A stretch of 64,000 nt of DNA from an uncultured Ignavibacteria bacterium. Its GTDB lineage: Bacteria > Zixibacteria > MSB-5A5 > UM-FILTER-46-8. Below the pieces are notes generated by a model that saw only the letters and a program-made list of their open reading frames with translations, searched no databases and was not told the DNA's origin. This document shows positions 1 through 60,384 of the stretch, piece by piece. Position 1 is the stretch's first letter; each line of letters starts with the position of its first letter. The stretch is from NCBI GenBank assembly GCA_964563085.1, contig CAZLVS010000002.1, forward strand, positions 64,091 to 128,090, in the 5' to 3' direction. Made by a program: the position numbers and the translations under genes.

Positions 1-318
1 AGCGACTCCGAGGATTGGGTATTAAGCGGATGGGAGCTTGACCGGGAAACTCCTGAAAAAGCTGTATTCGTTAATAACTATCCCAATCCGTTCAACACCA
101 AAACTACAATAAGCTATCATCTTCCGGAGGCATCTGTTGTTAATCTCGATATTTTCAATTTACTCGGGCAGAAAGTGGCATCATTGGAAAGCGGTTATAA
201 ACAGACCGGCGAGTATTCGTTAACCTGGGATGCATCGGAGCATTCCAGTGGAATCTATTTCTACAAATTGGAAATTGGCGATAAGGTGTTCATGAAGCGG
301 ATGACATTGCTGAAGTAA
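1..318 (+). CDS. 3' end of a secreted protein with T9SS (Por) C-terminal sorting domain; 5' end cut by the window edge
   Basis: Frame-1 translation ...NYPNPFNTKTTISYHLPEASVVNLDIFNLLGQKVASLESGY...GIYFYKLEIGDKVFMKRMTLLK with TAA at 316-318. Same CTD signature as six other genes in the window. Confidence 0.8.
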   Translation, partial: SDSEDWVLSGWELDRETPEKAVFVNNYPNPFNTKTTISYHLPEASVVNLDIFNLLGQKVASLESGYKQTGEYSLTWDASEHSSGIYFYKLEIGDKVFMKRMTLLK

Positions 319-883: not shown

Positions 884-3862
884 TTACTTCGGATCACCCA
901 GCAAAAAAAATGCGCCCCAAAAATAGGGATGGGCGGCTCCGTATGATCGTCTAAATTCGTCGATAGCATCCAAAATGGATAAGCGAAGAGCCTGCTGTTT
1001 AGTCTGACCGTTGAGCCAATAGTCATAGAATCGCACCATTATCTCGCGTGTTTCTCTATCAGGTACATCCCATAGGCTCATTATGATGCTGCGGGCGCCG
1101 GCATGCTGAAACGCTCTTCGCAATCCATAAATCCCCTCGCCATTCTTGACTTCGCCAACTCCGCTTTCGCATGCCGAAAGGACTACTAACTCCGTCCCGT
1201 TAAGGTCTAATCCCGAGATTTCAAAAGCAGTTGCGATTCCGTCCTCAACTTGGATATCCTCTCCGATATCTTTCTTATTCCTAAAACAGTTTGCGCCGGC
1301 AAGGGCGATGCCCGAACGCAATAACGGGTTTTCGCTCAAACCCTCCCCTCCCAAATCGGTATCTTCGCAGAAAAAGCCGTGAGTTGCCAGATGAACTACT
1401 CTGGGAACGCTGGTCATCCTCTTCAGTACTTCCTCGAGTGCCTCCGCTCCATAATAAGCCCGCACTTCGAGGTCTGCTCGGAGCTTCAGAAGCTCCGTAA
1501 CCGCTACCGCTTCGGCTTTGGTATGAGGCAGCAGCGGGCTGAAATCGGAATTTAAACATCCACTGCTGCCTCGGTATGATTCGAATCGATAGCCAATATT
1601 CGGCATTCCAGGTGTAGCGAGCTCTTCGCCTGTTACCGTATATTCCGGAGAATGCGCAAAATCCGGCTCCGCCATTACAAGCGCCCAGTTTTCGTATTTC
1701 TGTCCGCCCCTGTATTTCATCAGGTCGCGTCCGGATGAAAGGTAGCTTATTTTATATTTCTCAATGTTGAATCGCTCGTCCGGACCGGGTAGTATCTCGA
1801 AGGGCAATAGGTTGAGCTGAGCATCGGGAGATATGAATATCTGACTGATATTTTTGTCGGAGGCTATTAAGGGCTTAAAAATGATATTATACAGCCTACG
1901 CGTAAACTTGTTAAGCATTCGTTCCGCTTTCCTATCTCCATATTTATAAATTTCGCGACGCGCATTATAAAGCATTTCCCTGGTAGTAAGAATTAGCTCA
2001 TCGATCTCCCTGGCATCGCCGATGTCGATCATGGCAATTTCTTCCTCATGGTCAATGGTTATGACGAAATATCTCGGCGCTCCAGTTCTCTCCTCGTCGC
2101 TTCCGAGTTTTTTGAAATCGTAAGGATTATATTTAAGGAATTCCCAAAGTACGCTTCCTTTGGGCAGCGCTTTAGCGATATCATGCAAGCTAAACCGGTT
2201 CCTGATAAACTCGTCGCGATACTCGGAGCAGTTTTTACTGAGTTCGGTTTCAAGCGAATCCTTGGCTTCATTGAGAGTTCGCAGTCTATTTTGATACATT
2301 TCCGGGTTCAAGCTCCCTGCTCCGGTGAGAGTCAATGCAGCAATCTCCCCGCAGATGTCAGCATGTTGTTTCGCCATCAGTTCGATCTCATCGTTATCGG
2401 AGCAGTAGGCGATTTCATGCTCAGCGGATACGGCATCTAAAACCACCGCCTTCCCTTTTAACAGCATATCGAGTGCGAATTCACGCGCATCTTTCGAATC
2501 ATTCTGCAATGCCCAGAATATGTAGGTGTCAATTATCGGAGAGTGTTTGGATGCGAATCTGATTTTCTGTTCTTCGGATGCATAGGAGAATGCGTATTCG
2601 ATAAAGTTCTGCCTTGATCGATGGAGCTTTTTAAAATATAAATACGCCTCAGTTGATTTACCCATGCAGGCGTATAACTTCGCCAGACTATTATACCTGT
2701 TAGCAGTGCGAGGATGATCCGAACCGAGGGCTTTTTCCCTGATAGCAAGCGCGCGTTTGTAAAGCGGTTCAGATTCCGAATATCTACCGGTGCGGTAATA
2801 TATATTTGCCAGATCATTAAGAATCGGCGCCAGTTGAATATTCTCGAAGCCCAGTACGTTTTCATTAATTTCCAGAGCCCTTTTCTGGAGTTGCTCAGCT
2901 TGACGGTATTTTCTCAGGTCGCAATATATATCTCCGAGGATATTCATGCAGATCGCAACCGTAGTGTGGTTTGAACCGTAATGCTCTTCAGCTATTTTCA
3001 AGGCTCTTTTAGCATGTTGCTCCGCTTCGGTGTGCCTATCGAGTCCATTATAGAGTTGGGCAAGATAATTATGGATTATTCCTACATCCGGGTGATCGGA
3101 GCCGAGTGCTTTTTCGCGAATTGCTAATGCGCTTACATAAAGCGACTCAGCCTCGTTATATCTGCTTAAGTAACGGTAGGTGGTGCCCAAATTAAATAGA
3201 CTCACCCCTACCTTGTCATGTTCAGGTCCAAGCGATTCCTCAAAGATATGTAAAATCCGTCTTTCAAGATTCGCAGCATCGGTGTAGCTTCCCCGTATCC
3301 GGTAGATCACAGCCAGCTTACTTTGGCAGTCTGCTACATCCGGATGGTTTGTACCCAGTTTACCCCGTTTTATATCCTGTGCTTCCTGCAAAGCATTTTC
3401 GGCATCAGCGTATTTTCCTAAATTCATATAGGTCAATCCAAGATAAATCAGACTCTCCGCTGTTTCGAGATGATCTGATCCAAGCAATTCCTTTCTTAAG
3501 GCTGCAGACTTTCCAAAAAGCTTTTCGGATAAAGCGAAGTTCTTACTATCGAAATAACATAGGCCCTTTATGTGATAAGCATAAGCGACCATCCTATCAC
3601 GTTCACCGAATACCGATTCCGCTTCCTTAAGAGCTGATTCAGCATAAACCAACGCCGAATCCGGTTGATTGGCTTTTCTCAGGGAGTCGGCAAAATTAAG
3701 TGTGGTTAGTATATCTCTTTCGTCTGACGCCAAAATTTGAGCATGAAGGCAAACTATCAGAACAGCCGAGATTACCATGAGGATCGCAGTGAATTTAATT
3801 CGATGCTTGAATGACCAGTTACTATATCTTATACCCATAAATTGAACTCGAAGAGTAGTCAA
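884..3862 (-). CDS. membrane-anchored TPR-repeat protein with C-terminal CHAT (caspase-like) peptidase domain
   Basis: 992 aa. N-terminal hydrophobic anchor FTAILMVISAVLIVCL. Many TPR_12-like repeats (ALxIREKALGSDHPDVA...). C-terminal CHAT signature with His/Cys dyad context VVHLATHGFF and LVVLSACESG. Confidence 0.85.
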   Translation of the reverse strand: MTTLRVQFMGIRYSNWSFKHRIKFTAILMVISAVLIVCLHAQILASDERDILTTLNFADSLRKANQPDSALVYAESALKEAESVFGERDRMVAYAYHIKGLCYFDSKNFALSEKLFGKSAALRKELLGSDHLETAESLIYLGLTYMNLGKYADAENALQEAQDIKRGKLGTNHPDVADCQSKLAVIYRIRGSYTDAANLERRILHIFEESLGPEHDKVGVSLFNLGTTYRYLSRYNEAESLYVSALAIREKALGSDHPDVGIIHNYLAQLYNGLDRHTEAEQHAKRALKIAEEHYGSNHTTVAICMNILGDIYCDLRKYRQAEQLQKRALEINENVLGFENIQLAPILNDLANIYYRTGRYSESEPLYKRALAIREKALGSDHPRTANRYNSLAKLYACMGKSTEAYLYFKKLHRSRQNFIEYAFSYASEEQKIRFASKHSPIIDTYIFWALQNDSKDAREFALDMLLKGKAVVLDAVSAEHEIAYCSDNDEIELMAKQHADICGEIAALTLTGAGSLNPEMYQNRLRTLNEAKDSLETELSKNCSEYRDEFIRNRFSLHDIAKALPKGSVLWEFLKYNPYDFKKLGSDEERTGAPRYFVITIDHEEEIAMIDIGDAREIDELILTTREMLYNARREIYKYGDRKAERMLNKFTRRLYNIIFKPLIASDKNISQIFISPDAQLNLLPFEILPGPDERFNIEKYKISYLSSGRDLMKYRGGQKYENWALVMAEPDFAHSPEYTVTGEELATPGMPNIGYRFESYRGSSGCLNSDFSPLLPHTKAEAVAVTELLKLRADLEVRAYYGAEALEEVLKRMTSVPRVVHLATHGFFCEDTDLGGEGLSENPLLRSGIALAGANCFRNKKDIGEDIQVEDGIATAFEISGLDLNGTELVVLSACESGVGEVKNGEGIYGLRRAFQHAGARSIIMSLWDVPDRETREIMVRFYDYWLNGQTKQQALRLSILDAIDEFRRSYGAAHPYFWGAFFLLGDPK

Positions 3863-3868
3863 ACCCTT

Positions 3869-4543
3869 CTACTTAACCGCAAATTCATATTCATACAGGG
3901 TGGAATCGTATGCAGCGTTTTCATGAGATACCCTCAAAATGTAATTTCCAGGCGCAAAATTATCCACCGGTATCCTAACGCTTCCAATGATTCTCCCTTG
4001 AAATTCCGTATTAAGAGAATAATCAATATTGGAGACGACTATCTCATCATCAGGTGAAAATACTCCTATTAGATATTGCTTCTGCGGGTTCGATTTACTC
4101 ATATCGAAGATGATTTTGGCTTTTTCTCCCTTATCTAATAAAAGGATGTTTCCGGCTGCGCCTCTTTCAGGCATTAAGTATAATGTCTGCTGTACTCCTG
4201 TGCCTAACCAGTTTGTGAAACCGGCATATATCGCTACAATTAGTATCATCTGCGCCAATACAAGTTTTGGGGATTTAAGGCGGGGAATCAGTTCAAACAA
4301 CCATACCCGGATTCTCGACCGAATCGGCGGTGTGGGAGGGGATACCATATCGGATACTATCTCTTGCGCTTCTTCATCGACTCTGATTTGTAATGTAACC
4401 TCCTGGAATTGCATGAATTTCTCGAAACAGTACTCGCATTGAGCCAGATGAAGTTCGAATGATTCTCGCTCCTTATCATTTAAAATACCCAGTTCAAAAG
4501 CATGAAGTAATTGTCCGATGGATGGATCATTACATTCTTTCAT
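3869..4543 (-). CDS. anti-sigma factor, zf-HC2 type, single-pass membrane protein
   Basis: N-terminal HLAQCEYC = H-x3-C-x2-C zinc-finger anti-sigma motif. TM helix LVLAQMILIVAIYAGFTNWLG and ~95-aa extracytoplasmic C-terminus. Start abuts the stop of the upstream sigma gene. Confidence 0.75.
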   Translation of the reverse strand: MKECNDPSIGQLLHAFELGILNDKERESFELHLAQCEYCFEKFMQFQEVTLQIRVDEEAQEIVSDMVSPPTPPIRSRIRVWLFELIPRLKSPKLVLAQMILIVAIYAGFTNWLGTGVQQTLYLMPERGAAGNILLLDKGEKAKIIFDMSKSNPQKQYLIGVFSPDDEIVVSNIDYSLNTEFQGRIIGSVRIPVDNFAPGNYILRVSHENAAYDSTLYEYEFAVK

Positions 4544-5107
4544 CTATTCCACCTTCCCCTTTTCAAGACATTCCTCGATTTTAGCCCGGGCAATTGATAA
4601 AAGGTAATAACAGTAATTTGTTGTAATGCTTATCTTTTGGCTTATCTCCGGCGCCTTGTAGCCTTCGTAACTCAGGGCAAGAACATTGGCATAGAGCTTC
4701 TCTGAACCAACAACCATTTCAAAACACCTAAGGATCATTCGCCTCAGTTCCGGATCTTCATCCATTGATGGCGCATTAATTTCATACTGGTAATCACTCA
4801 AAGGTATCTGAATTTTCTTCCACCGCTTCTGTTTGGTGAAATGATTCCATAGTTTAAGGGTCATAATACGGTCTGCCCATTTTAAAAAGCCTGTCTGGAA
4901 ATCCATCTTTCTGTATTCATTTGCCACTGTCATAAGAGCTTTCTGGACAACATCCTCGATATCCTGTTTGTTCTTCATATTATTATAGTTCGCCAATCTG
5001 GTAAACCTTAGAGTCAATATCTCAAAAAGACGACTTTCCGAACTTTTACCCCCGTTTTGAGCTTCTCTTAATAAATCATCAATATCCAAAACGACAATCC
5101 TGATCAA
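4544..5107 (-). CDS. RNA polymerase ECF-type sigma-70 family sigma factor
   Basis: 187 aa. Sigma-70 region 2 and region 4 (LYANVLALSYEGYKAPEISQKISITTNYCYYLLSIARAKIEE HTH). Translationally coupled to the anti-sigma gene. Confidence 0.8.
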   Translation of the reverse strand: MIRIVVLDIDDLLREAQNGGKSSESRLFEILTLRFTRLANYNNMKNKQDIEDVVQKALMTVANEYRKMDFQTGFLKWADRIMTLKLWNHFTKQKRWKKIQIPLSDYQYEINAPSMDEDPELRRMILRCFEMVVGSEKLYANVLALSYEGYKAPEISQKISITTNYCYYLLSIARAKIEECLEKGKVE

Positions 5108-5331
5108 ATTTAACTACTATAATATTCCTTTAGAGGCGGGAATGCAAGGATAGATTTCACACGGCATTCTGTTTGAGACCAATGATTCAATAAAATATGT
5201 ATTTTGGGGCCGCTTTTCTAAGAACCGGGCTTCCGGCAAACTTAAATCATGTGAAAGACGGATTACGCATGAAGATACGAGAATGAGAACTAAATGCCAC
5301 AAACCTAAAATTAATCAAAGGAGAAACTAAA

Positions 5332-8133
5332 ATGAAAAAGAGATTAATTTACCCCGCTGTCATAATTTGGGTTTGCGTCTTTGCGGCGATGCCGGCGAAC
5401 GCAAATTGGAGCAAACAGACTATTGATGGCAATTACGATGGGGCATTTATCGCCTATGCCGTCGACCTTGATTCCGACGGCGATATGGATGTTTTGGGAG
5501 CGGCTCGCGATGGCGATGAAATCACCTGGTGGGAAAATGACGGCAGCCAGAATTTCATCGAACGCATTATCGCTGAAAACTATCTCGGCGCCTATTCACT
5601 TGTTGTCGTCGACTTGGATATCGACGGCGATCTGGATATTGTAAGCGCCGCCTACGATGGGGACGAGATCACATGGTGGGAAAACGACGGTAACCAGAAT
5701 TTCGCCGAACGCCTAATCTCCGGTATTATTGACGGCCCCTCCGAACTCTTTGCTATCGACTTAGACAGTGATGGCGATATCGATGTGTTAGGAGCCGTCT
5801 ATGTGGGTGGTTTTATAACTTGGTGGGAAAATGACGGCAATCAGAACTTTGTCGAGCATCTCATCGATTTTACCTTCTTCGGCGCTCATCATGTCCATGC
5901 GGCCGACTTGGACGGCGACGGCGACCAGGATGTAATCGGGGCGGCTCGCATCAACAATGAAATCACCTGGTGGGAAAACGACGGCAACGGTAATTTTGGC
6001 CAACCTATTGTCATCGCCGCCTTTGAAAATGCGGTGGAAGCGTATGCCTATGATCTGGATAACGACGGCGATCTGGATATTTTGGGAGCCGGTCACGCTG
6101 TCGGCGTCAGCGGAATCGCTTGGTGGGAAAATGACGGCGCCCAGAATTTCACGGAACACACTATCGATCAGAACTTCAATGATCCCTTTCATGTCGCCGC
6201 CGTCGATTTTGACAACGATGGCGACCTGGATGTTCTGGCGGCTTCGAATGCCGATGATGAAATCGCTTGGTGGCAAAACGATGGAGACCAAACCTTCAGC
6301 AAGCAGGTTATCGACGGAGCTTTCAATGGAGCTAATTACGTTTGCGCCGCCGATATGGATGACGACGGCGATCTGGATGCCGTAGGAGCCGCTCGCTATG
6401 GGGATGAAATCGCCTGGTGGGAAAATGATATAGCGAGTTTCACCGAACATACACTCTATGAAAATTTCTGGGATTTCTGTGCGGCGGATGTCAACGGCGA
6501 CGGGCATGCCGATATCATAGGAGCCGATTCTATCGGCAATGAAATAATCCTGCTGCGTAATGATGGCAATGAGAATTTCAACTCCAGTCAAATCGAAGGC
6601 GGCTTTTTAGGCGCCAATACTGTGGACGTAGCGGATATCGATGGCGATGGGAATCTCGATATTCTGGGGGCGGCTTCCAGAGAAGGCGATGTGGCTTGGT
6701 GGAGGGGATTCGGTAATGGGACTTTCGGCGGTATGAACCTCATCGATGCGGTTTTCCATTGGGCGGGGGATGTAAAAGCGGTCGATCTGGACATTGATGG
6801 CGATATTGACATTCTGGGAGTTTCATCGGCCGCGGGCATTGGACTGCATTGGTGGGAAAATGACGGCAATCAGAATTTCACCGAACACACCATTGACTCA
6901 GACCAACTTGGCAAAAACCTCATTGTTGCAGATCTGGAAGACGATGCCGATTTGGATATCTTGATCTCCTGGGCGGATAATATATACTTGTGCGAAAATG
7001 ACGGCGCCGGTAATTTTCTCTGCTACCCCTTCTTCGGAGCGCCGGATGTCGAACGTATATATGCTATCGATTTAGACAATGATGGCGATACGGACGTACT
7101 GGATGCAGAACGCAACGGCTGTATCACTTGGTGGGAAAACCAGGGCAACATGGTTTTCGACCGCCATCACTGCGGCATCGGTATCGATTTCTTGGGGGCT
7201 TACGGCGTTCATGCGGGCGATATCGACAATGACGGCGACATAGATGTTTTGGGTTCCTCCGCTTCCCCGGATTTCGGCAAAGTTGCGTGGTTCGAGAATG
7301 ATGGAGACCAGAACTTTATCATGCACACTATCGATGGAGACTTCGATAACGGACGTGATGTTTATGCTATCGATGTTGACAATGATGGCGATTTGGATGT
7401 TTTGGGGTCTGCCACAGCCGGCAATCAAATGACTTGGTGGGAAAACGATCTTAATCCTCCCTGGTGCGATGTCAACATGATTCCCGACGATGATCCTGTT
7501 GTAGTTCCACCTGGGGGAAACTTCGGACTTACAGGAATCATCGGAAATCCAACTGAAGATCCGATTATAACTGATGTATGGGTCGGCGTGAAAAATCCGT
7601 TTGGTTCTCTTATAGTATTATATGAATTCTCGAACATTCCTCTTAATCCCGGGCAATATTTGGAATCGCACTTAAATCAATCCGTTCCTGTGAGCGCCCC
7701 ACCGGGAATCTACCAGTTCGAAGCTTATTGCGGTGATCTTAGTAGTTGGACAACCTGTGATTTCGCTTACTTCTCTTTCACGATAACGGGAGCGCGTTTA
7801 GCGGATGGCGCCACCGAATGGATTCTTGATGGAGGTTGGTTTGAGAATGAAACCGCGCCTGATATCCCGGCGGACTATACCCTGAATGAAGCCTATCCTA
7901 ATCCGTTTAACGCTACCACTACTATCAGCTACAATCTACCGATCGCGGGTAATGTTAAACTACAAGTTTACAACCTATTAGGTCAGAGAGTTGCCGTACT
8001 CGTGGATGGTAATTTAGATTCCGGGGAGCATACCGTAACATGGGATGCATCCGATTATTCCAGCGGTGTTTACTTCTACAAACTCATCGTTGGGGACAAA
8101 ATGTTTACAAAACGGATGACGCTGTTGAAATAA
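5332..8133 (+). CDS. secreted FG-GAP/VCBS-type repeat (beta-propeller) protein with conserved pre-CTD module and T9SS C-terminal sorting domain
   Basis: Signal peptide. About 14 repeats of DLDxDGDxDVLGAxxxGDEITWWENDGNQNF. Module MIPDDDPVVVPPGGNFGLTGIIGNP...YCGD...FTITGA. CTD AYPNPFNATTTISYNL...GVYFYKL...KRMTLLK. RBS AAAGGAG. Confidence 0.85.
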   Translation: MKKRLIYPAVIIWVCVFAAMPANANWSKQTIDGNYDGAFIAYAVDLDSDGDMDVLGAARDGDEITWWENDGSQNFIERIIAENYLGAYSLVVVDLDIDGDLDIVSAAYDGDEITWWENDGNQNFAERLISGIIDGPSELFAIDLDSDGDIDVLGAVYVGGFITWWENDGNQNFVEHLIDFTFFGAHHVHAADLDGDGDQDVIGAARINNEITWWENDGNGNFGQPIVIAAFENAVEAYAYDLDNDGDLDILGAGHAVGVSGIAWWENDGAQNFTEHTIDQNFNDPFHVAAVDFDNDGDLDVLAASNADDEIAWWQNDGDQTFSKQVIDGAFNGANYVCAADMDDDGDLDAVGAARYGDEIAWWENDIASFTEHTLYENFWDFCAADVNGDGHADIIGADSIGNEIILLRNDGNENFNSSQIEGGFLGANTVDVADIDGDGNLDILGAASREGDVAWWRGFGNGTFGGMNLIDAVFHWAGDVKAVDLDIDGDIDILGVSSAAGIGLHWWENDGNQNFTEHTIDSDQLGKNLIVADLEDDADLDILISWADNIYLCENDGAGNFLCYPFFGAPDVERIYAIDLDNDGDTDVLDAERNGCITWWENQGNMVFDRHHCGIGIDFLGAYGVHAGDIDNDGDIDVLGSSASPDFGKVAWFENDGDQNFIMHTIDGDFDNGRDVYAIDVDNDGDLDVLGSATAGNQMTWWENDLNPPWCDVNMIPDDDPVVVPPGGNFGLTGIIGNPTEDPIITDVWVGVKNPFGSLIVLYEFSNIPLNPGQYLESHLNQSVPVSAPPGIYQFEAYCGDLSSWTTCDFAYFSFTITGARLADGATEWILDGGWFENETAPDIPADYTLNEAYPNPFNATTTISYNLPIAGNVKLQVYNLLGQRVAVLVDGNLDSGEHTVTWDASDYSSGVYFYKLIVGDKMFTKRMTLLK

Positions 8134-8149
8134 TATAGCGTTATACTCC

Positions 8150-8182
8150 TTGAAAACGGACCGTGTATTATGGTCCGTTTTC
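8150..8182 (+). terminator. intrinsic terminator
   Basis: AAAACGGACC-GTGTATTAT-GGTCCGTTTTCTGTGG hairpin plus U-run, 17 bp after the stop. Confidence 0.55.
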
Positions 8183-8450
8183 TGTGGACAGTACTTGAGT
8201 AATACCAATCTATACATTAACAGCCGTAGAAAAGCTTCCGAATTGCGCGAAGCTTGAGGAGCAATCCGATAACATAAATCTCCTAATGTAAATGATCTAC
8301 TCAGAAAAGCATCTTCCCCGTTTTTCAACAATTCCTCTAAGAATCGAACCTTTCGCAAACTTTACCTATGTGACAGACAGAGCATTCGAAAAATGTGAGA
8401 AGAGAGTTTAAACAAGACTAATTCGCAAATCAATCAAAGGAGAAACAAAA

Positions 8451-10697
8451 ATGAAAAAGAGACAAATTCTAATAGCAATGATACTTGCTATCCTGGTTTC
8501 CACAAGCGGGGCGGAGGTTATAAACATCCCCGAAGACTATGAAACGATTCAGGAAGGGATAGACGCCAGCACAGACGGCGACATGGTTTTAGTTGCACCG
8601 GAGACCTATAATGAAAACATAAACTTCCATGGCCGCAAAATAATCGTAGCATCATATCATTTCACCACCGGTGACACAGCTTTCATAACATCGACCATCA
8701 TTGACGGGGGAGAGAACGGTTCAGTAGTTCGATTTTGTAATTATGAAGATAGTCTGTCTGTTTTAACCGGCTTCACAATCCGGAATGGAAGCACAATGGG
8801 ATTAGGGGGAGGAATTCAGTGCTGGGAATCCGGTCCAAAAATCACGCACAATAAAATTGTCGATAATGCCGCTGGCGAAGGCGGTGGAATCGGTTGTGGA
8901 TGCTGTGCGTATGGCGGTAGTGGTCCGATAATTTCCGACAATGAAATCGCCAATAATTCCGCAAATGATGGAATGGGAGGGGGAATAAGCTGCAATCAAG
9001 TCTCAGGGGCGAAGATCACCAATAATGTTATCTCCTACAATACCGCTTCAACCGGCGGAGGAATTGGGTTTGATGATACCTCCGATGAATGGGTTAACAA
9101 CAATACGATCTGTTACAATTTGGCTGACGATGGCGGCGGGATTAGTTGCAGCAGGATTGGACAGGTTACTATTACCAACAATGAGATTCTCGGTAATTCC
9201 GCCGAAAGAGGCGGGGGGATTAAAATGTATGAGAATTCGGGGGGCTGGATTGACAGCAATACTATCATATATAACTCGACCGATGATGGAGGCGGCATAT
9301 ACTGTGTCGGTAATTCAACGCCTTCCATTGCTAACAATATTCTTGCCAGTAATACCGCCAACAATAAAGGCGGAGGCATTTACTGCTGGGGAGCCGAACC
9401 TTCTATTAGCGATAATTCCATCGAAAACAATTCGGCATATGTTGGCGGAGGAATCTACTGTTATGAAATTACCGAACTGATAATCGATAACAACAACATC
9501 GACGGCAACTCTGCCGATGAAACCGGAGGCGGTATACTCGCAGATAGCGGAACTCCTATCATTATCAACAACACTATTACCGGTAATTCCGGTTCTTCGG
9601 GGAAAGGGATAGCATGTGTTAATTCAGATGCCTCAATAAGAAATAACCTTATCACCCTCAATCAGGAATTCGGGCATGGCGGAGGTCTTTTCTGTTCCCA
9701 TAGCGATCCCCAAGTTGATCACAATACCATCACCGATAATTCAGCCGGCAGAGGCGGCGGTGTTTACTGTTACAATTCCAATCCAATAATAACAAACACT
9801 ATTCTGTGGGGGAATTCGGCTACTTATGGTTCTGAAATCTATACAGTTGATAGCGATCCGAGCGTAACTTATTCGGACGTGGAAGGCGGATGGACAGGAG
9901 AAGGAAATATTAACGCAGATCCTTTGTTCTGCGATCCGCAGCTTCCGGATTTTTGGCTTGCAGAGAATTCTCCATGTGTTGGAAGCGGTCAAAATGGCGA
10001 GGATATAGGGGCTTATGGGATCGGATGCGAGGCGATTGGCATTTGCTGTGATATCGACATGATTCCAGATGATGATCCTGTCATTGTTCCTCCTGGCGGT
10101 TCATTTGGTTTGACAGGCATTATAGGCAATCCAACTGATGATCCGATTACAACCGACGTATGGGTAGGCGTAATATACATGGGGAGTTTCTACCAGCTCT
10201 GGAATTTCCCGAACATTCAGCTTAATTCCGATCAGTATCTGAATTCTCATCTTAATCAAAACGTTCCGGGCAATGCTCCGGTAGGGACTTATGACTATGT
10301 CGCTTATTGCGGCGACAAACCTGAAGTCTGCGACTCAGCAAAGTTTCAATTCACAGTAAGCGGAGCTCGTATTAACGGCGGCGCCGAAGAATGGAACCTT
10401 CAGGGAGGATGGAAGGAGGATGAACTTGCTCCGACCGAATGCATACTCGATAGTAACTATCCAAATCCCTTTAACCTGAAAACTACGATCACCTACGAGC
10501 TGCCGAAAGCATGTGAAATTTCTCTTACCATCTATAATTTGATGGGTCAGGAACTGGCTACGTTGGTGGAGGGCGTACAGGACGCAGGTAAACATCAAGT
10601 GCAATGGGATGCCGCTAATCGGTCCAGCGGAGTTTATTTCTATAAATTGGAGGTTGGTAATAGAGTATTCACAAGGCGGATGACATTGTTAAAGTAG
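8451..10697 (+). CDS. secreted right-handed parallel beta-helix repeat protein with conserved pre-CTD module and T9SS C-terminal sorting domain
   Basis: Signal peptide. About 20 repeats of NNxIxxNSAxxGGGIYC. Module MIPDDDPVIVPPGGSFGLTGIIGNP. CTD NYPNPFNLKTTITYEL...GVYFYKL...RRMTLLK. The 5' leader, RBS and MKKR start are near-identical to the preceding gene. Confidence 0.85.
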   Translation: MKKRQILIAMILAILVSTSGAEVINIPEDYETIQEGIDASTDGDMVLVAPETYNENINFHGRKIIVASYHFTTGDTAFITSTIIDGGENGSVVRFCNYEDSLSVLTGFTIRNGSTMGLGGGIQCWESGPKITHNKIVDNAAGEGGGIGCGCCAYGGSGPIISDNEIANNSANDGMGGGISCNQVSGAKITNNVISYNTASTGGGIGFDDTSDEWVNNNTICYNLADDGGGISCSRIGQVTITNNEILGNSAERGGGIKMYENSGGWIDSNTIIYNSTDDGGGIYCVGNSTPSIANNILASNTANNKGGGIYCWGAEPSISDNSIENNSAYVGGGIYCYEITELIIDNNNIDGNSADETGGGILADSGTPIIINNTITGNSGSSGKGIACVNSDASIRNNLITLNQEFGHGGGLFCSHSDPQVDHNTITDNSAGRGGGVYCYNSNPIITNTILWGNSATYGSEIYTVDSDPSVTYSDVEGGWTGEGNINADPLFCDPQLPDFWLAENSPCVGSGQNGEDIGAYGIGCEAIGICCDIDMIPDDDPVIVPPGGSFGLTGIIGNPTDDPITTDVWVGVIYMGSFYQLWNFPNIQLNSDQYLNSHLNQNVPGNAPVGTYDYVAYCGDKPEVCDSAKFQFTVSGARINGGAEEWNLQGGWKEDELAPTECILDSNYPNPFNLKTTITYELPKACEISLTIYNLMGQELATLVEGVQDAGKHQVQWDAANRSSGVYFYKLEVGNRVFTRRMTLLK

Positions 10698-26568: not shown

Positions 26569-27972
26569 ATGTCAAAAAAAGTTTTGCTCATTCTCACCAT
26601 CTGTATTTTTACGTTGACGGCTTCTAATGTGCTTGCGGTGCAAAGAATGCCGGTGGGGGAATTATTCACCAACACATCATGCGGACCATGTTATAACGCC
26701 AACATAGCGCTTGACGGCATTGTTGAAGACCATTGGGATGAATTGCTGGTAGTTAGATATCACACCTGGTGGCCCTCATCCGGCGATCCTTTTTATCAAC
26801 ACAACGTTGCCGAAAACCAGACTCGAACCAACTATTATGGAGCCGATTATGTTCCTCATTTCTGGGTTGACGGAGTGGATAGAGGTTCGGGATATAGTGG
26901 ATGGGCATCCTATATTCAAGGTCGAATGGGGGTTTCCTCTCCCTTGGAGATGAGTATCGATGGTTCCTATGATCAGGACACAAGAGAAGTGGATATCACC
27001 ATCAATGTCAATGCGGTTGATGATCCCGGCATAAGCCTGCGTATCTTCTACGGCATCGCAGAAGATAGTATATATTTTAATGCGCCAAATAACTTGGATT
27101 GGCATCATCAGACATTCAGAGACTTTTTGACCTCCGCCTCGGGCGATCCTGTTACTTACGAGCAAGGTGAATCATATTCATACAGCGAGACATTCACATT
27201 GAACAACTCCTATGATTGGGAACAGACATTCATTTTCGCCTTCGTACAAGACTATGCCCACAGGGATATAAAGCAGGGAGCGAAAGCGTACCTGAAGGAT
27301 ATGTTCAGCTCGGTGGCGATCGACATGATCCCCGATGATGATCCGGTTATCGTCAATCCCGGCGGTCATTTCACGTATACAGGTGTTCTGACCAACAATG
27401 AAAACTTGTTCCAATGGGTAGATGTCTGGGTCATGATCGATGTTCCCGGCTATGGAATGTACCGTCCGGTGATGAGAGTAAACAATGTGTTCATGAATCC
27501 CTATGAAACCTTGACGGTACCGAATATTCGACAAAACGTTCCCAACATTGCGCCTGCGGGAGATTACAATTATATGGCTTATTGTGGGGACTTTGACACC
27601 AATGTAATAGATGAGGCTGCTTTCCCATTCACGGTGGCTGCGGGCCGAAGCGGCGATGCTGATAGCTGGAATGCCGAGGGCTGGTCAGATGGATTAGGTA
27701 ATGTCGTATCCGAAGCAATAATCACCAACGCTTATCCTAATCCGTTCAATGCCTCCACACAGATATCGTTCAATCTCGTCGATGAATCAAAAGTCACTCT
27801 GGAAGTATTCGACCTGATGGGTCGCAAAGTATCAACTTTAGCCAATGGCTCTTATTCTGCCGGTAATCATAATGTTAATTGGGACGCTTCTCAGTATGCC
27901 AGCGGAGTATACTTCTATAAATTATCCACCGATAATGAGACCATTACAAAGAGAATCACCTTGGTGAAGTAG
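26569..27972 (+). CDS. secreted protein with N-terminal CGPC (thioredoxin-like motif) domain, conserved pre-CTD module and T9SS sorting domain
   Basis: Signal peptide. SCGPCYN. Module MIPDDDPVIVNPGGHF. CTD AYPNPFNASTQISFNL...GVYFYKL...KRITLVK. Confidence 0.8.
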   Translation: MSKKVLLILTICIFTLTASNVLAVQRMPVGELFTNTSCGPCYNANIALDGIVEDHWDELLVVRYHTWWPSSGDPFYQHNVAENQTRTNYYGADYVPHFWVDGVDRGSGYSGWASYIQGRMGVSSPLEMSIDGSYDQDTREVDITINVNAVDDPGISLRIFYGIAEDSIYFNAPNNLDWHHQTFRDFLTSASGDPVTYEQGESYSYSETFTLNNSYDWEQTFIFAFVQDYAHRDIKQGAKAYLKDMFSSVAIDMIPDDDPVIVNPGGHFTYTGVLTNNENLFQWVDVWVMIDVPGYGMYRPVMRVNNVFMNPYETLTVPNIRQNVPNIAPAGDYNYMAYCGDFDTNVIDEAAFPFTVAAGRSGDADSWNAEGWSDGLGNVVSEAIITNAYPNPFNASTQISFNLVDESKVTLEVFDLMGRKVSTLANGSYSAGNHNVNWDASQYASGVYFYKLSTDNETITKRITLVK

Positions 27973-32886: not shown

Positions 32887-35673
32887 ATGAAGCTACTTAC
32901 ACAATCCTTAACCATTTCTTTCATCTGTCTTTTCTTGATTCTGGCGATCAATCCACCAGCAAATAGCAGCACAATATATGTCGAGGGAGATGTCTGGGGG
33001 CAATGGAGCGCGGATACGGTGTTAGTTACCGATTCTATTCGTGTTCCCACTGATAGCAATCTTATTATCGATCCGGGAACCAAAGTCCTTTTCTGGGCGC
33101 ATGATAAATTCGTGGTGGATAGCGCTGCTACGTTGATTGCGGTTGGAACGGAAATGGATTCCATCCGGTTCGACGAATATTTCTCGGGGAATAAATGGCA
33201 TGGGATAAGATTTCTCAATGCCTCAGATTCGTGCATATTGGAATATTGTTGCCTAATACACGGCAAGGCTTCAGGTATCGGCGATGACGCTTATGGCGGC
33301 GCCATCTTTTGCAGTCATTCCGATATTACCATTAAAAATTGCCTTATTGATAGATGCTCCGCAAAAGAACGCGGAGGCGGCATTTCTTGTATACAGTCTA
33401 GCCCTATGATATCCGACAACATTATCATTAGGAACAACATCCTTAGAAACGAAGCCAATGACGGCGGGGGCGGGATTTATTGTGGAATTAATTCCAATCC
33501 CTCCATTATGGGGAACACGATTGGTGCAAATGAAACCGGCGGAGACAGCTATGGTGGCGGCATTTATTGTAGCAATTCCAGTCCGATAATCGATGGAAAT
33601 AACATTACTGGAAATAGAGGATACAACGGCGGTGGCGGCATTTGTTGCGAGGAAAATTCAAATCCAACGATAAATGATAATGTTATCAGTGAGAACTGGA
33701 CCGTATATTTTCAAGGTGGCGGCGGAGTGTACTGTATCAACTCCAGCCCCTCAATTACCGGAAATACCATCAGCGGAAACTGGACTGATGCCTATTATGG
33801 TTATGGAGGCGGAATCTCCTGCCAAAGTAACTCCAGTCCTACAATTACCGGCAACACCGTTGATAATAATTCAGCATCGAATTATGGAGGCGGAATCTCC
33901 TGCAGGGCTGACTCCCACCCCATAATTAGTGGCAACATCATAAATAGCAATTCTGTAGTGAATTACAGCGGTGGTGGTATTTACTGCTATAATTCCTGTC
34001 CCACAATCAGCGATAACACCCTTGACGGGAATAGCGCGAACCGGGATGGCGGAGGAATTTATTGCGACATTGGGTCCAACGCAAATATTGACGGGAATTA
34101 CTTCGTTGCGAATTCAGCGGCTGATTATGGCGGCGGGATTCGGACTTCGGGTAGTTCGCCGGTAATAAGTAACAATTTCATCACCTCCAATATTGCCGAT
34201 GACGGCGGAGGGATATCCGTAAGTTCGTATCATGGAATTGTTAACTATAATACTATTTCAGATAATACCGCCGGATCTAACGGTGGTGGAATTCATATTA
34301 CTAATTCCGGTTCTAATCTTATTTTGTTGAATAATTCAGTTATCGAAAACATAGCCGGTTCTGACGGTGGTGGGATTTACCTGTCCGCGTCCGATCCCCG
34401 GATCATCAATTCAATAATATTTTTAAATACTGCGACCAACGGTCCCCAAATCTGGCCCACTAACGGTTCCGATCCGGATGTGACCTATTCCTGTATTGAA
34501 GGCTACTGGCCCGGCGAGGGCAACATATTCGATGATCCCTTATTCCGCGATCCCGATAACGGGGATTATCACCTCCAGGATAATATCAACTGCGGCGATA
34601 CGCTTTACTCTCCCTGTATCGATGCCGGGGATCCCGCAATACTCGATGCGACACTGAGCTGTGAATGGGGACTGGGCGAGAGAATTAGCGACATCGGCGC
34701 CTACGGTGGCGGCGACAGGACTCCTACTATCAGCAATATGAGCCGCAATCCGGAGAATCCCGTCGAGGGCGAAGAGTGCGAGATCTCGGCAATTATAATT
34801 GATGAAACCGGATGGATCGACCATGCTGGTCTATATGCGGACATGGGTTCAGGTTTCTACCTATTTCCGATGAGTAATGTTGCGGATTCGTTTTTCGCCA
34901 CCATCCCCGGACTGCCCAAAGACACTACGGTCTTCTACTATATAACAGCGGTGGACGAAATCGGAGACTCCACCGTTAGCGACACTCTCTCATACACTGT
35001 CCTGCCCGCATTATGCTGCGACGTGGACATGGAAACCGATAGTTATCCGATCAATGTTCCTCCCGGCGGCTCCTTCGGACTCACCGGCATTATCGGAAAC
35101 CCTTCGTTGGAACCGATTATTACAGATGTCTGGGTAGGAGTAAGAAACGGCAGCGCTTTTATACAGCTTTACGACTTTCGGAATATTATTCTCAATGCTG
35201 GTCAGTATGTGTCGGCTCATTTAGTACAGAACGTACCGGTCTCTGCCGATCCCGGAGTTTATGGATACGCCGCCTTTTGCGGGGACTTCGATGGGTGGTC
35301 GGTATGCGATTCCGCTTCATTTGAATTCACCATAACCGGAGCGCCATTAGCGCGCGGCGCAATGGAATGGACGCTGGAAGGAGGCTGGGGAGGTGTTGCC
35401 GAAAAGCCGACAGATTACGCCCTTATAGCTAATTACCCCAATCCATTCAACGCCGCGACCACTATCGTTTATCAGCTTCCCGAATCCGGAGATGTAAATC
35501 TGAGCGTTTATAATATCGCCGGACAACGAGTTGAGACCTTGGTGAGCGGTTTGATGGAAACGGGGAATCACAGAGCTAATTGGGATGCGTCTAATTACTC
35601 CAGCGGTATATATTTCTACAAACTTACCGCCGGGGAGAAAGTGTTCACCAGGCGGATGACATTATTGAAATAG
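32887..35673 (+). CDS. secreted parallel beta-helix repeat protein with conserved pre-CTD module and T9SS sorting domain
   Basis: Signal peptide. Many NxIxGNxAxxGGGIYC repeats. Module DMETDSYPINVPPGGSFGLTGIIGNP. CTD NYPNPFNAATTIVYQL...GIYFYKL...RRMTLLK. Confidence 0.85.
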   Translation: MKLLTQSLTISFICLFLILAINPPANSSTIYVEGDVWGQWSADTVLVTDSIRVPTDSNLIIDPGTKVLFWAHDKFVVDSAATLIAVGTEMDSIRFDEYFSGNKWHGIRFLNASDSCILEYCCLIHGKASGIGDDAYGGAIFCSHSDITIKNCLIDRCSAKERGGGISCIQSSPMISDNIIIRNNILRNEANDGGGGIYCGINSNPSIMGNTIGANETGGDSYGGGIYCSNSSPIIDGNNITGNRGYNGGGGICCEENSNPTINDNVISENWTVYFQGGGGVYCINSSPSITGNTISGNWTDAYYGYGGGISCQSNSSPTITGNTVDNNSASNYGGGISCRADSHPIISGNIINSNSVVNYSGGGIYCYNSCPTISDNTLDGNSANRDGGGIYCDIGSNANIDGNYFVANSAADYGGGIRTSGSSPVISNNFITSNIADDGGGISVSSYHGIVNYNTISDNTAGSNGGGIHITNSGSNLILLNNSVIENIAGSDGGGIYLSASDPRIINSIIFLNTATNGPQIWPTNGSDPDVTYSCIEGYWPGEGNIFDDPLFRDPDNGDYHLQDNINCGDTLYSPCIDAGDPAILDATLSCEWGLGERISDIGAYGGGDRTPTISNMSRNPENPVEGEECEISAIIIDETGWIDHAGLYADMGSGFYLFPMSNVADSFFATIPGLPKDTTVFYYITAVDEIGDSTVSDTLSYTVLPALCCDVDMETDSYPINVPPGGSFGLTGIIGNPSLEPIITDVWVGVRNGSAFIQLYDFRNIILNAGQYVSAHLVQNVPVSADPGVYGYAAFCGDFDGWSVCDSASFEFTITGAPLARGAMEWTLEGGWGGVAEKPTDYALIANYPNPFNAATTIVYQLPESGDVNLSVYNIAGQRVETLVSGLMETGNHRANWDASNYSSGIYFYKLTAGEKVFTRRMTLLK

Positions 35674-37519: not shown

Positions 37520-38785
37520 ATGAGGATTCCCATTTTCTGTATTATAGCATTGGCCGTCTTTCTGTTAGCACATGCAAATTCGCTTACTACCCAAGCAGAT
37601 AATATTACTACGATTGAACGTATGACCGCGCACCGGCAAGAGACGGGAGGGGAACTACTAATTAGCCCCGAAGATATGATCGCTTATGATAACGCTCCAA
37701 TACGTTATTATCCTAATTGGACTGAATCCGCAATTATGTGGAGCGTTCGCTTCACGCCGGAACGATTTTGTTCCCTGAAATATATTCAGATAGCGACCTA
37801 TGAGGGCGCGGGAAACGCTGCGATTCATATATGGGAGGATGACGGGAGCGGCTGTCCGGGCAATGATATAATATCGCCTTTTACCATAACGTTATCAGGA
37901 GATCTCTCCTATCAGACCATCCATATAAATCCCCCCGTAGACATTGGAAACGCAGATTTCCATGCAGGTTTCGAATACTTAAATACTCCGCCTCCATACG
38001 CGACTACAGACGGCGACGGAGCGACCGAGGAACGAAGCAAGGTGTATTTTCCGGTAGACGAGTGGTCAAGTTTGCCCCACGACCTCAATATTCGAGCATT
38101 CGTAACCTATTATGAAAGAAGCATTTTAATTTCTATGTTTCCGCATAATCCTCCGATTGTTGTTCCCGCAGGAGGCTCCTTTCGGTACACCGGAGGATTG
38201 ATAAACCAGTTAAGTCAACCCACTGAAATCGATATTTGGGTGATGATTGAAGCGCCCGATTACGAGATGTATGGACCGGTTAAGCTGTATCAAGCGATTC
38301 CGATTGCGCCGCTGGATACCATTGTAGTGCATAGAATAACTCAGCAGGTTCCGGCATTCGCCCCTCCCGGATTCTATAATTATTATGCTTTCTGCGGCGA
38401 TTATCCTGCGCTGGAGGCGGCTTCCGATTCATTCAGGTTTGCGGTGACATCACCTGCCCGAGGCAAAGGTGATAATTGGGAATTGTCCGATTGGTTTGAT
38501 GATAGTGATAGTAATATACCGGATGAAATCACGCTTGACGCCAATTACCCCAATCCGTTTAATGCAAAGACCAAAATCAGCTTCACTCTGCCGGAATCAG
38601 GCAACATAAGCATGGAAGTATGTAATTTAATGGGACAGAAAGTCGCCGCCCTGGTGAACGGACATAAAGAAGCCGGCCACCATACCATAACCTGGGATGC
38701 ATCGAATCAATCCAGCGGGATTTATTTCTACAAGCTAATCGTTGGCGACAAAGTCTTCACGAAACGGATGACATTGCTGAAGTAA
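37520..38785 (+). CDS. secreted protein with conserved pre-CTD module and T9SS sorting domain
   Basis: Signal peptide. Module FPHNPPIVVPAGGSFRYTGGL (diverged). CTD NYPNPFNAKTKISFTL...GIYFYKL...KRMTLLK. Confidence 0.8.
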   Translation: MRIPIFCIIALAVFLLAHANSLTTQADNITTIERMTAHRQETGGELLISPEDMIAYDNAPIRYYPNWTESAIMWSVRFTPERFCSLKYIQIATYEGAGNAAIHIWEDDGSGCPGNDIISPFTITLSGDLSYQTIHINPPVDIGNADFHAGFEYLNTPPPYATTDGDGATEERSKVYFPVDEWSSLPHDLNIRAFVTYYERSILISMFPHNPPIVVPAGGSFRYTGGLINQLSQPTEIDIWVMIEAPDYEMYGPVKLYQAIPIAPLDTIVVHRITQQVPAFAPPGFYNYYAFCGDYPALEAASDSFRFAVTSPARGKGDNWELSDWFDDSDSNIPDEITLDANYPNPFNAKTKISFTLPESGNISMEVCNLMGQKVAALVNGHKEAGHHTITWDASNQSSGIYFYKLIVGDKVFTKRMTLLK

Positions 38786-56129: not shown

Positions 56130-57305
56130 TTGGCTTCGAAAGGGAAAAAGGAAAGTTCATCTAAAGGCAGGATCAGCCGCAAACAGCGGGCGAAGTCTAC
56201 CGGCAGTCTTAGTTGGAAAGTATTTTTCGTCATAATCGCAGCAGCTATATTGTTCGTGGGGACTATCATCCTCCACAAGGATTTAGCCCGCCTTTTCGAT
56301 TCATTAACGGCAGAACGGGCAGGGCAATCAAGTGATTATACGGCGCTTGAGGATGCAATCATGGCTGCTGCGGTCTCATTCGGAATAAATCCGGATAATA
56401 TCCGGGTTAGTTTCTCCGGTCCGGATGAGGATTTAACCGGAGCCAGCAATGATATCAGGATATCGCATTTATATCCCAAAACGCTATTTCATCTCAAACT
56501 CCGCGACAATTTGGTGCCTACCGGTTTTACGATAGAAGATTGTATTGAAAGCAGAAATGGGGATTTTATGACCTTTCAAATCTCTCATCCCGATTTCCGC
56601 GACTATCGTTTCAATTTAATATCGGACCGGTCGGCGAAACCCCAAGCCTCTTATTATTCCGTGATTATCGATCACGTTCAATCACTGCCCTCGGAACAGA
56701 GGGTTAGGTTAGCCGATGATGGGGCATTCTATACGTTCATATTGACTCCCGGTGTAAGAGGATTTACCAAAACCAGACAAGAGCTGGTTTCCAAACAGAG
56801 ACAGATTATATACGAGGTGCCGCTGGAGAGCCGTAAATTTGTTGGATTGATGAATGCCGCCGCTTCGATAGTAGGACTTAGGAGGGTCAGCGATTTGGAA
56901 CAGGCTATGAACACCTTAAAGGGTTTATGCCGGGATTTTAACTATCTTTATGTGCGCGGCAAGGAATGGAACTTGAGCGAAGAGCTGGCAAGGAAATTGG
57001 GCGAGGCTGGATTTGTTATATTCGCCGGTGGAGAACCGGTGAATCGAAAGGAGATCGACATATTCCTGCAAGGCGGCGGCAGGATAGTTAAAACGACCGA
57101 GCGTATGGAAAGCGATTCCCGGGATAAACTTCGCATGGATCTACTCCGATACCACCGCGAAGAACTGCTTTTTAATAATTGGGGTATCATTATTGTAGAA
57201 GCCAATGCCGGTCTGCATGAAAACCTCGGTAATTCCGTTGACTATTTAAACAGATTTAATTGTAAATTAACTCCGATTTCTCAGATTCTTCTGAGGATCG
57301 GATAA
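56130..57305 (+). CDS. membrane-anchored hypothetical protein (basic N-terminus, single TM, large extracytoplasmic domain)
   Basis: MASKGKKESSSKGRISRKQRAK followed by a TM helix FFVIIAAAILFVGTIIL. Confidence 0.6.
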   Translation: MASKGKKESSSKGRISRKQRAKSTGSLSWKVFFVIIAAAILFVGTIILHKDLARLFDSLTAERAGQSSDYTALEDAIMAAAVSFGINPDNIRVSFSGPDEDLTGASNDIRISHLYPKTLFHLKLRDNLVPTGFTIEDCIESRNGDFMTFQISHPDFRDYRFNLISDRSAKPQASYYSVIIDHVQSLPSEQRVRLADDGAFYTFILTPGVRGFTKTRQELVSKQRQIIYEVPLESRKFVGLMNAAASIVGLRRVSDLEQAMNTLKGLCRDFNYLYVRGKEWNLSEELARKLGEAGFVIFAGGEPVNRKEIDIFLQGGGRIVKTTERMESDSRDKLRMDLLRYHREELLFNNWGIIIVEANAGLHENLGNSVDYLNRFNCKLTPISQILLRIG

Positions 57306-59178: not shown

Positions 59179-59571
59179 CGGGTATGTCTTCTGCTCCAAT
59201 AACGAAATTTATGAATAATACAGACCAGGGTTGGCTGTGCAGATAATTTACCACAAACTGCATAATATTGCATGGCATTCATCAAAAATTTGGTTAAGTA
59301 TTCGCAAAATTTCTGCCATCGTAGCTGCAATCTATTATCTGTTTAAACCTTATACAGATTAACTCAATCCGAATTTAAGTACACAGGCATCGGCATAAAA
59401 ATTGCTTAATTCTAACATTGGTAGTGATTTTATCTCTATAATTATATTCGAATATGACCATTTATACCGTTGGTAGTTGGTATTAGTGGTTTGGACTGGT
59501 AGTAGGTTTTCCTAACCAGATACATTTATATACTTGAGTTTTAACAGTTCATATTAAACAAAGGAGTGACC

Positions 59572-60384
59572 GTGAAGAGAATTTTACTAAGTACAACTGT
59601 TCCTTTATTGTTTTTTGCCGTAACCCTTTTTGCTCAACCGGCTTATATAGTACATCATCAGGATCCGCCGGAAGGTCGCTCGGGCGATATTGAGATAATT
59701 CCTTACGATTCTACCTTAATTGTGGATCCCGATGGGGGATTCGTCTGCTTTGATGTTGTCATAAACAACTATGACAGCAGATCTGTACTCGGTTATGTAT
59801 GGGCGGAAGTCTACTGTCCGGCTACCGGCAGGCAATGGGAACCGCTGAACTTGGTATCGATGACACTCGGCCCTCACGAGACATTCATGTATGAAGACGG
59901 ATGTTTATATGTGCCGTGGTGTATCGACGGGGGATTGTACCAACTAATTGGAAAGGTGGGCTGCTATCCCTTTATAACTGATACAGATACGATCACCTTC
60001 TATAAGGATGGCGGTGGGGATTGGGATTGTCCTCCCAATTTCTTCATCGAGCTAAATACTATCCTTCCTTCGGGTACTGTTGTTTCGGAATGTCAGCGGA
60101 TCGAAGGCGAGACTGTGCCGGGCGTGGTTACTATCGGAGAGGTCTATCCCAATCCGTTCAATGCTTCCACGAATGTAAAGTTCAGCCTTTATGAGACCAC
60201 GGATGTTGAAGTAAAAATCTTCGACTTGTTGGGTGAAGAGGTCGTTTCCCTCGTAAACAGGGAGTTATACGCCGGCACCCATGAGGTGACCTGGGACGCC
60301 TCGATGATGTCCTCAGGAATCTATTTTGTGGAAATCAAAGCGGGTTCGGCTAAGCTGGTGAAAAAGCTCACGCTGGTTAAATAG
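59572..60384 (+). CDS. small secreted protein with T9SS C-terminal sorting domain (lacks the shared pre-CTD module)
   Basis: GTG start 5 nt after AAAGGAG. CTD VYPNPFNASTNVKFSL...GIYFVEIKAG...KKLTLVK. Confidence 0.75.
   Translation: MKRILLSTTVPLLFFAVTLFAQPAYIVHHQDPPEGRSGDIEIIPYDSTLIVDPDGGFVCFDVVINNYDSRSVLGYVWAEVYCPATGRQWEPLNLVSMTLGPHETFMYEDGCLYVPWCIDGGLYQLIGKVGCYPFITDTDTITFYKDGGGDWDCPPNFFIELNTILPSGTVVSECQRIEGETVPGVVTIGEVYPNPFNASTNVKFSLYETTDVEVKIFDLLGEEVVSLVNRELYAGTHEVTWDASMMSSGIYFVEIKAGSAKLVKKLTLVK

Follow-up and report, generated by a model that had tools for sequence, protein, structure and literature searches.

A predicted immunoglobulin-like domain in front of the type IX sorting domain of secreted proteins in Zixibacteria, with a probable role as spacer

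The 64,000 nucleotides analysed here (contig CAZLVS010000002.1 of an uncultured bacterium that GTDB assigns to the Zixibacteria; hereafter the window) encode a family of proteins that end with the same two-part tail. This tail consists of a module and of a C-terminal sorting domain (CTD) of type A, which belongs to the secretion system of type IX (T9SS). The module, which sits on a large share of the secreted cargo of Zixibacteria, is in our preferred interpretation a hitherto undescribed zixibacterial immunoglobulin (Ig)-like domain, which is placed before the T9SS tag and serves as a spacer or pedestal. The constant ends of the genes would recombine over evolutionary time, and the copies in the window would be old. 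We regard this interpretation, taken as a whole, as fairly probable.

A common tail on unrelated heads in the window

The members of the family, designated g0 to g6, and their parts are the following:

1..318, forward strand: g0, gene truncated by the start of the window, of which the 3' end remains, with the module end 'WVLSGWE' and a CTD
5332..8133, forward strand: g1 (933 amino acids), signal peptide, 13 FG-GAP_3 stretches, module and T9SS CTD
7468..7839, forward strand: module of g1 in front of the CTD (124 amino acids), predicted Ig-like β-sandwich
7894..8130, forward strand: T9SS type A C-terminal sorting domain of g1 (PF18962, TIGR04183)
8451..10697, forward strand: g2, signal peptide, right-handed β-helix, module (10050-10412) and CTD (10458-10694)
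26569..27972, forward strand: g3, Omp28-like/CxxC head, module (27319-27687) and CTD (27733-27969)
32887..35673, forward strand: g4, β-helix/NosD-like head, module (35020-35388) and CTD (35434-35670)
37520..38785, forward strand: g5, head without family match, module (38129-38497) and CTD (38546-38782)
59566..60384, forward strand: g6, headless and diverged, signal peptide, module-like domain (59686-60042) and CTD (60145-60381)

The initial annotation of this DNA had pointed out five open reading frames (ORFs), g1 to g5, with the same two-part tail. This was confirmed by the ORF list, the translations and a profile of the module, which matched all five with E-values of 1e-55 to 1e-60 in a six-frame translation of the window, where all chance matches had E-values of about 1 or higher. 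The count of five was correct as far as it went, but omitted g6 (module profile E 3e-5; CTD E 4e-27; match to PF18962) and g0, which retains the terminal W.L.GW motif of the module in addition to its CTD. Because these two further copies also have module sequence, the module is carried by 7/7 CTD-bearing ORFs of the window. Its length had been given as about 110 amino acids; the module is real, but slightly longer (121-124 amino acids in g1 to g5), and the whole shared tail comprises about 200 amino acids.

The second part of the tail is a T9SS sorting domain, as had been annotated. The proteins of g1 to g6 reached 36-53 bits with PF18962 and 44-55 bits with TIGR04183 (curated cutoffs 27 and 23 bits, respectively), and the matches extend to the last residues. 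Furthermore, Sec signal peptides were recognised by inspection in all six complete proteins (basic start, hydrophobic stretch, A-x-A-like site). The exact g1 protein is also present in the Logan assemblies of SRR7048218 and SRR7048220.

The heads preceding the module in g1 to g5 are mutually unrelated, in agreement with the initial annotation. Domain scans yielded different families, namely FG-GAP_3 for g1 (counted as 13 stretches), Beta_helix for g2, an Omp28-like domain with a CGPC motif for g3 and Beta_helix/NosD for g4; the head of g5 (37520-38128, about 200 amino acids) had no Pfam match. The head of g3 (26569-27318) additionally showed a match to NCBIfam NF045500, 'Omp28-related selenoprotein' (E 6e-20, below the cutoff), and one to DUF1223. 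Since its CGPC motif stands at the selenocysteine position of this selenoprotein family, it appears to be a cysteine version of a thioredoxin-like surface protein.

Sequence and predicted fold of the module

No model of Pfam-A or NCBIfam matched the module, even at E ≤ 10 with the isolated domain (8 modules); at this threshold, Pfam returned noise alone (Y_Y_Y 0.065, ML 0.12). A comparison of the module profile with the sequences of the PDB likewise gave noise alone (E ≥ 0.14), with no gingipain among the matches. The earlier remark that the module corresponds to no nameable domain is thus borne out for Pfam and NCBIfam. Membership in the gingipain-type immunoglobulin superfamily (IgSF) domain (PF03785, Peptidase_C25_C) was rejected, as 8/8 modules had no match at E ≤ 10, and membership in CARDB (PF07705) was rejected because the hidden Markov model (HMM) of that family did not match at E ≤ 10. 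There was also no sequence match to families of carbohydrate-binding modules (CBMs).

In the AlphaFold2 model (pLDDT, the predicted local confidence, 93.3) the module is all-β with 8-9 strands and adopts the two-sheet Greek-key β-sandwich of Ig-like/E-set domains, with significant structural matches. Foldseek matched it to fibronectin type III (FnIII)-like domains of glycoside hydrolase family 3 (GH3) enzymes, to the Ig-like domain of AlkC and to RbmA, and also to Wzt and CBM folds; these are generic Ig-like sandwiches with an identity of 18% or less. An Ig-like/CARDB-type β-sandwich is confidently predicted. When the whole tail was modelled (pLDDT 90; predicted template modelling score, pTM, 0.58), linker residues 128-137 fell below pLDDT 50, and module and CTD are predicted to form two independent β-sandwiches arranged like beads on a string. 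Near-invariant polar or aromatic positions of the module are N27, D36, W38, Q71, Y82 and Y84.

Size, architecture and distribution of the family

When 1.84 billion representatives were searched exhaustively with HMMER, 2,871 relatives of the module were obtained at E ≤ 1e-3, of which 1,289 reached E ≤ 1e-10 and 146 reached E ≤ 1e-30; each match is a cluster representative at 50% identity. A word-indexed search with two relatives had suggested that the module is a rare element; this was overturned by the exhaustive search.

The best 151 of the 2,871 relatives served for the description of the architecture. A CTD was found in 139 of these 151, and the other 12 mostly stop within or just after the module. 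The gap between module and CTD (n = 139; median 17 amino acids) measures 14-19 amino acids in 110 proteins and less than 30 (14-29) in 131. The final 8 residues or so of this gap form the first strand of the CTD, and the real linker is therefore only about 6-10 acidic or polar residues long. The heads fall into about 44 unrelated clusters, a number which is approximate because single linkage merges repeat proteins (FG-GAP with β-helix). Among them are S8, C1 and M28 peptidases, PQQ, FG-GAP and BNR propellers, cupredoxin, CBM96, Omp28-like and PETase-like domains. The initial description of a modular tail on variable heads thus applies far beyond the window, with more than 40 unrelated head clusters.

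All organism-named representatives (7/7) are from Zixibacteria; at NCBI they are either called hypothetical or carry no label beyond "T9SS type A sorting domain-containing protein". The genomes that represent species point in the same direction: 28/28 of the loci retrieved from them lie in three zixibacterial metagenome-assembled genomes, namely 22 in Bin_336 (WJIR01), 5 in PFXJ01 and 1 in Bin_366, in a scan that used a 4-sequence subfamily whose two peptide patterns favour the g1/g2/g4 subtype. One family gene of Bin_336 (locus L006, 2749-3558) is broken by a stop or frameshift within the module, with the first part of the module in the ORF 2749-3228 and the remainder together with a partial CTD in 3232-3558; a pseudogene or a sequencing error is possible.

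Age of the copies in the window

The module had been described as conserved at the DNA level (about 75-80% identity). For the stretch of g1 and g2 on which this was based, 89/114 nucleotides are identical (78%), together with 34/38 residues and 18/38 third codon positions. Over the whole module, however, the nucleotide identity among g1 to g5 is 44-65%, about equal to the amino acid identity, and synonymous sites are saturated between the window paralogs. The fraction of identical residues encoded by the same codon amounts to 0.32-0.51 for the modules of the window, compared with 0.35-0.40 expected from its codon usage; the best uncorrected p-values among the window pairs were 0.02 for the ten module pairs and 0.009 for the CTD pairs. 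As codon sharing lies at expectation, the similarity of the module DNA is a by-product of protein conservation.

The nearest relatives of the modules are found in other genomes (g2 and Bin_336 L001, 83%; g4 and Bin_366 L002, 72%; g3 and Bin_336 L014, 51%). From the saturated synonymous sites and from these relatives it follows that the window copies are old; the paralogs are ancient, and their similarity is maintained by selection on the protein. Recent gene conversion among them was rejected because the same-codon fraction is at expectation, the positive control being tails from Bin_336 (0.61-0.78 versus 0.37). Since synonymous divergence (dS) between the window paralogs is saturated, the ratio of nonsynonymous to synonymous divergence (dN/dS) was computed for g2 and its ortholog in Bin_336. 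It is 0.13 for the module, which is therefore under purifying selection.

Recombination at the constant ends

In Bin_336, tail-specific gene conversion is real. In L007, L011 and L012 the heads are homologous and show a same-codon fraction of 0.34-0.49 (about 0.4 expected; saturated), and the tails of these genes reach 0.67-0.78 (0.37 expected). Identity among the three rises to as much as 100% exactly at the module boundary, then falls and rises again in a mosaic. A fourth gene, L010, possesses the same tail behind an unrelated head of about 790 amino acids (same-codon fraction 0.61-0.66; p 1e-11 to 1e-16). Across the four tails the excess of codon sharing has p-values of 1e-11 to 1e-31. The constant ends, i.e. 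the tail and in some genes also promoter and leader, are thus substrates of homologous recombination over evolutionary time, although not recently among the window copies.

Further junctions were found at g1 and g2, the sole adjacent pair of the family in the window:

5217..5343, forward strand: upstream block of g1 with the leader, ribosome binding site and start repeat (leader 5313-5343), TCTAAGAAYCG..GCAAACTT..ATGTGA.AGAC
8336..8462, forward strand: paralogous upstream block of g2 with the leader repeat (leader 8432-8462), junction of g1 presence/absence in comparison with Bin_336
10400..10415, forward strand: recombination breakpoint of g2 at the module/linker boundary, where synteny with Bin_336 stops

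The common leader, ribosome binding site and start of g1 and g2, which had already been noticed, form a repeat of 31 nucleotides (30/31 matching) that occurs twice in the window and not once in 100 shuffles. It ends a paralogous upstream block of about 130 nucleotides, of which the g1 and g2 copies are 58% identical. In Bin_336, a full-length ortholog of g2 was detected (L001, 1402-3648; 84% amino acid identity), and g1 is missing; the g2 ortholog has a g1-type upstream region there (92% identical). L001 1-1419 aligns with positions 3926-5349 of the window and L001 1378-3648 with 8427-10697, and the overlap is the leader. The upstream copies in the window have diverged far more than the orthologous regions, and therefore the duplication is older than the split. 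Most likely, g1 was lost in Bin_336 by recombination between the leader repeats. A third family gene of Bin_336 with the same block and leader carries a DUF5122-propeller head and has no counterpart in the window. The upstream regions of g3, g4, g5 and g6 are unrelated.

The comparison of g2 with its ortholog gave the following values:

Head: amino acid identity 89%, dN 0.058, dS 0.51
Module: amino acid identity 82%, dN 0.096, dS 0.74
Linker: amino acid identity 33%, no dN or dS values
CTD: amino acid identity 58%, dN 0.365, dS 2.1

Near codon 650 (about 10400-10415 of the window) the nucleotide identity of the two genes drops from 0.80-0.91 to 0.51-0.64, and the downstream DNA is unrelated. 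A recombination breakpoint is therefore located at the module/CTD junction of g2. As both genes share head and module and differ in the CTD, the CTD is exchangeable independently of the module. This contradicts the assumption that stalk and secretion tag move as one unit.

Just 3' of the g1 stop codon, a strong hairpin at 8152-8182 (GAAAACGGACC..GGTCCGTTTTC; -23 kcal/mol for a segment of 67 nucleotides) looks like an intrinsic terminator, in which case g1 and g2 would be transcribed separately. The hairpin was not listed by the terminator consensus scan around g1 and g2, and the sigma-70 promoter and terminator scans of this region did not exceed shuffled expectation.

Proposed function of the module

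The proteins of the family consist of a signal peptide, one of dozens of unrelated heads, the module, an acidic or polar linker of about 10 residues that is predicted to be disordered, and the CTD. According to the preferred interpretation, by analogy with the IgSF-CTD tandem of RgpB, the CTD would be cleaved in the linker once the protein has been exported by Sec and translocated by the T9SS, which would leave the module at the C-terminus of the mature cargo, close to the membrane. There it may act as a protease-resistant spacer or pedestal, which insulates the head from the CTD and holds the cleavage and attachment site at a set distance. Recombination at the constant ends would remove or add whole genes of tandem arrays, swap CTDs and homogenise the tails in some genomes. 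For RgpB, the IgSF domain before the CTD was proposed to be a spacer or insulator, IgSF domain and CTD have no fixed orientation, and the length of the linker influences attachment to A-lipopolysaccharide (A-LPS) (PMC4804311).

Several observations weigh against this interpretation. The role as spacer or pedestal, although probable, has the position, the fold and the analogy to RgpB as its whole basis. Some proteins are free of a head and consist of a signal peptide, one to three modules and a CTD (g6, P0004, P0009 and P0041). Internal modules distant from any CTD occur in two genes of Bin_336, L026 (1051-4782) and L017 (826-3366), which are built of two or three tandem units of a propeller-like head of about 250 amino acids plus a module, with a single terminal CTD; in L026 this array comprises three units. 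The module is therefore also duplicated along with a head and can be located far from a CTD, and both the headless proteins and the internal copies suggest that, apart from spacing, it may exert some activity itself. In addition, 7 CTD proteins in the same recovered Zixibacteria loci have no module, which is thus not needed for secretion. The restriction of the family to Zixibacteria holds so far for the 7 representatives with an organism name, out of 2,871, and for the 28 genome loci.

The module could instead be a CBM-like or matrix-binding domain, by which cargo is held non-covalently on surface glycan or lipopolysaccharide, or by which cells and matrix are linked. Headless proteins and internal copies would fit such a function, as would the near-invariant polar and aromatic residues and the fold matches to RbmA, Wzt and CBMs. 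These matches are, however, generic, and many of the domains concerned are non-binding spacers (FnIII-like domains of GH2/GH3 enzymes, macroglobulin (MG) domains). Together with the lack of any match to a CBM family in the sequence searches, and with the fixed place beside the CTD, which binding leaves unexplained, this makes a binding domain improbable in our view. An even less likely, and indeed very doubtful, reading takes the module as a part added to the T9SS signal in this lineage, which the zixibacterial translocon, shuttle or sortase would recognise together with the CTD. The near-constant spacing and the presence of the module in every CTD protein of the window speak for it, and motifs in both adjacent Ig-like domains have been suggested to dictate CTD processing (PMC4804311); it is contradicted by the CTD proteins without module in the same genomes, by CTDs swapped independently of the module and by internal modules without a neighbouring CTD. 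Another reading, to which we assign a low probability, regards the tail as a standardised two-domain C-terminal device of Zixibacteria, with the module active in surface-coat assembly and with promoter/leader and tail making cargo genes interchangeable by recombination. The module might then take the covalent anchor, bind glycan of its own cell or make lateral contacts in the coat. Module-only headless proteins, the near-constant spacing and the 7/7 CTD proteins of the window are compatible with this reading.

The initial annotation had interpreted the locus as an active cassette system, in which a constant stalk plus tag is currently recombined or gene-converted onto variable heads of this genome. 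Constant ends do recombine in the family, as the Bin_336 tails, the g1 junction and the break in g2 demonstrate. The near-identity confined to the Bin_336 tails is mosaic and includes one gene with an unrelated head; g1 and g2 share promoter block, leader and tail, and the content of the array varies between genomes, with junctions that fall in the leader and between module and CTD. The window copies, however, show no trace of recent conversion, as their module and CTD pairs are at or near codon-usage expectation at synonymous sites and their closest module relatives are in other genomes. A dedicated cassette locus is contradicted by the position of the genes, which lie among housekeeping genes with only g1 and g2 in tandem; g3 to g6 are dispersed and have unrelated upstream regions. 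Furthermore, the combination of head and module of g2 is conserved in its ortholog at 84%, and toxin or immunity features are lacking. This genome is thus unlikely to possess an active system of cassettes. Over evolutionary time, the cassette idea is supported in part.

Genomic context

Beside the family members, the window contains nadE, an AMP ligase gene, a polyprenyl synthase gene, dinB, tmk, an S41 protease gene (ctpA), parA, an xerC-like gene, topA, NFACT, ksgA and pdxJ, and g3 to g6 are scattered among these chromosomal housekeeping genes. Upstream of g1 lies an operon on the reverse strand (884-5107):

4544-5107, reverse strand: extracytoplasmic function (ECF) sigma factor
3869-4543, reverse strand: zf-HC2 anti-sigma factor
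884-3862, reverse strand: TPR-CHAT protein of 992 amino acids

This operon diverges from g1, and its nucleotide sequence is 85% conserved beside the g2 ortholog in Bin_336. It might be speculated that the upstream block common to g1, g2 and the third Bin_336 gene is the target promoter of the ECF sigma operon. No T9SS translocon or sortase components (SprA/Sov, PorK-N, PorV, PorU) were found among the scanned ORFs of the 64-kb window, and no tRNA genes or Rfam families were detected in it.

Three large proteins without a CTD are probably extracytoplasmic, namely those encoded at 10902-13103 (reverse strand; VIT and VWA domains), 13280-15982 (forward strand; DUF5916/CBM9-like) and 19910-22048 (forward strand; MG2 domain), and the region appears rich in envelope and surface proteins. 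In the ORF at 50872-52242 (456 amino acids), a complete TatD DNase domain (residues 4-254) is followed by a radical SAM domain (272-440); either this fusion is unusual, or the ORF comprises two genes. The ORFs at 53068-54927 (619 amino acids) and 56130-57305 (391 amino acids) had no Pfam match.

Comparison with known systems

No paper linking Zixibacteria with the T9SS was found in the literature. The advance made here is incremental, the fold being generic and the function one that we infer. A large domain family (at least 2,871 clusters at 50% identity) is nevertheless without a name in the curated libraries searched, and the module can be used as an annotation marker for zixibacterial surface and secreted proteins. 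For the T9SS field it represents a natural test for a contribution of the pre-CTD domain to processing or anchoring, and the recombination junctions in the leader and between module and CTD illustrate how constant ends permit gain, loss and re-tagging of secretome genes.

A likeness to polymorphic adhesin or toxin loci, which had been proposed initially, was not corroborated. Polymorphic toxin, contact-dependent inhibition (CDI) and Rhs loci also consist of constant and variable parts with recombination at the constant part. In the family described here, however, the arrangement is reversed, with a variable N-terminus and a constant C-terminus, and ordinary enzymes and binding domains form the heads. 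Domain scans of the window showed no toxin domains or immunity genes, and its six-frame search no orphan module or CTD fragments. Among the gingipain/HagA paralogs of Porphyromonas gingivalis, common C-terminal regions are homogenised by recombination; the common parts are adhesin domains in a few related genes. In contrast, what unrelated cargo has in common in Zixibacteria is the CTD and a generic domain before it.

From CARDB (PF07705), macroglobulin and FnIII-like accessory domains the module differs in that no Pfam model matches it at E ≤ 10 and identities do not exceed 18%; a set place in front of a T9SS CTD is peculiar to the module family. The closest parallel is the IgSF-linker-CTD tandem of RgpB, Kgp and PPAD of P. 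gingivalis (PMC4804311), in which an Ig-like sandwich likewise stands just before a type A CTD, with a short flexible linker, whose geometry matters for processing, and a functional or catalytic head upstream, and for which a role as spacer was proposed. An Ig-like domain before the CTD was thus already known from a few proteins of P. gingivalis, and this architecture is extended here to an uncultured phylum, in which it is a standard part throughout.

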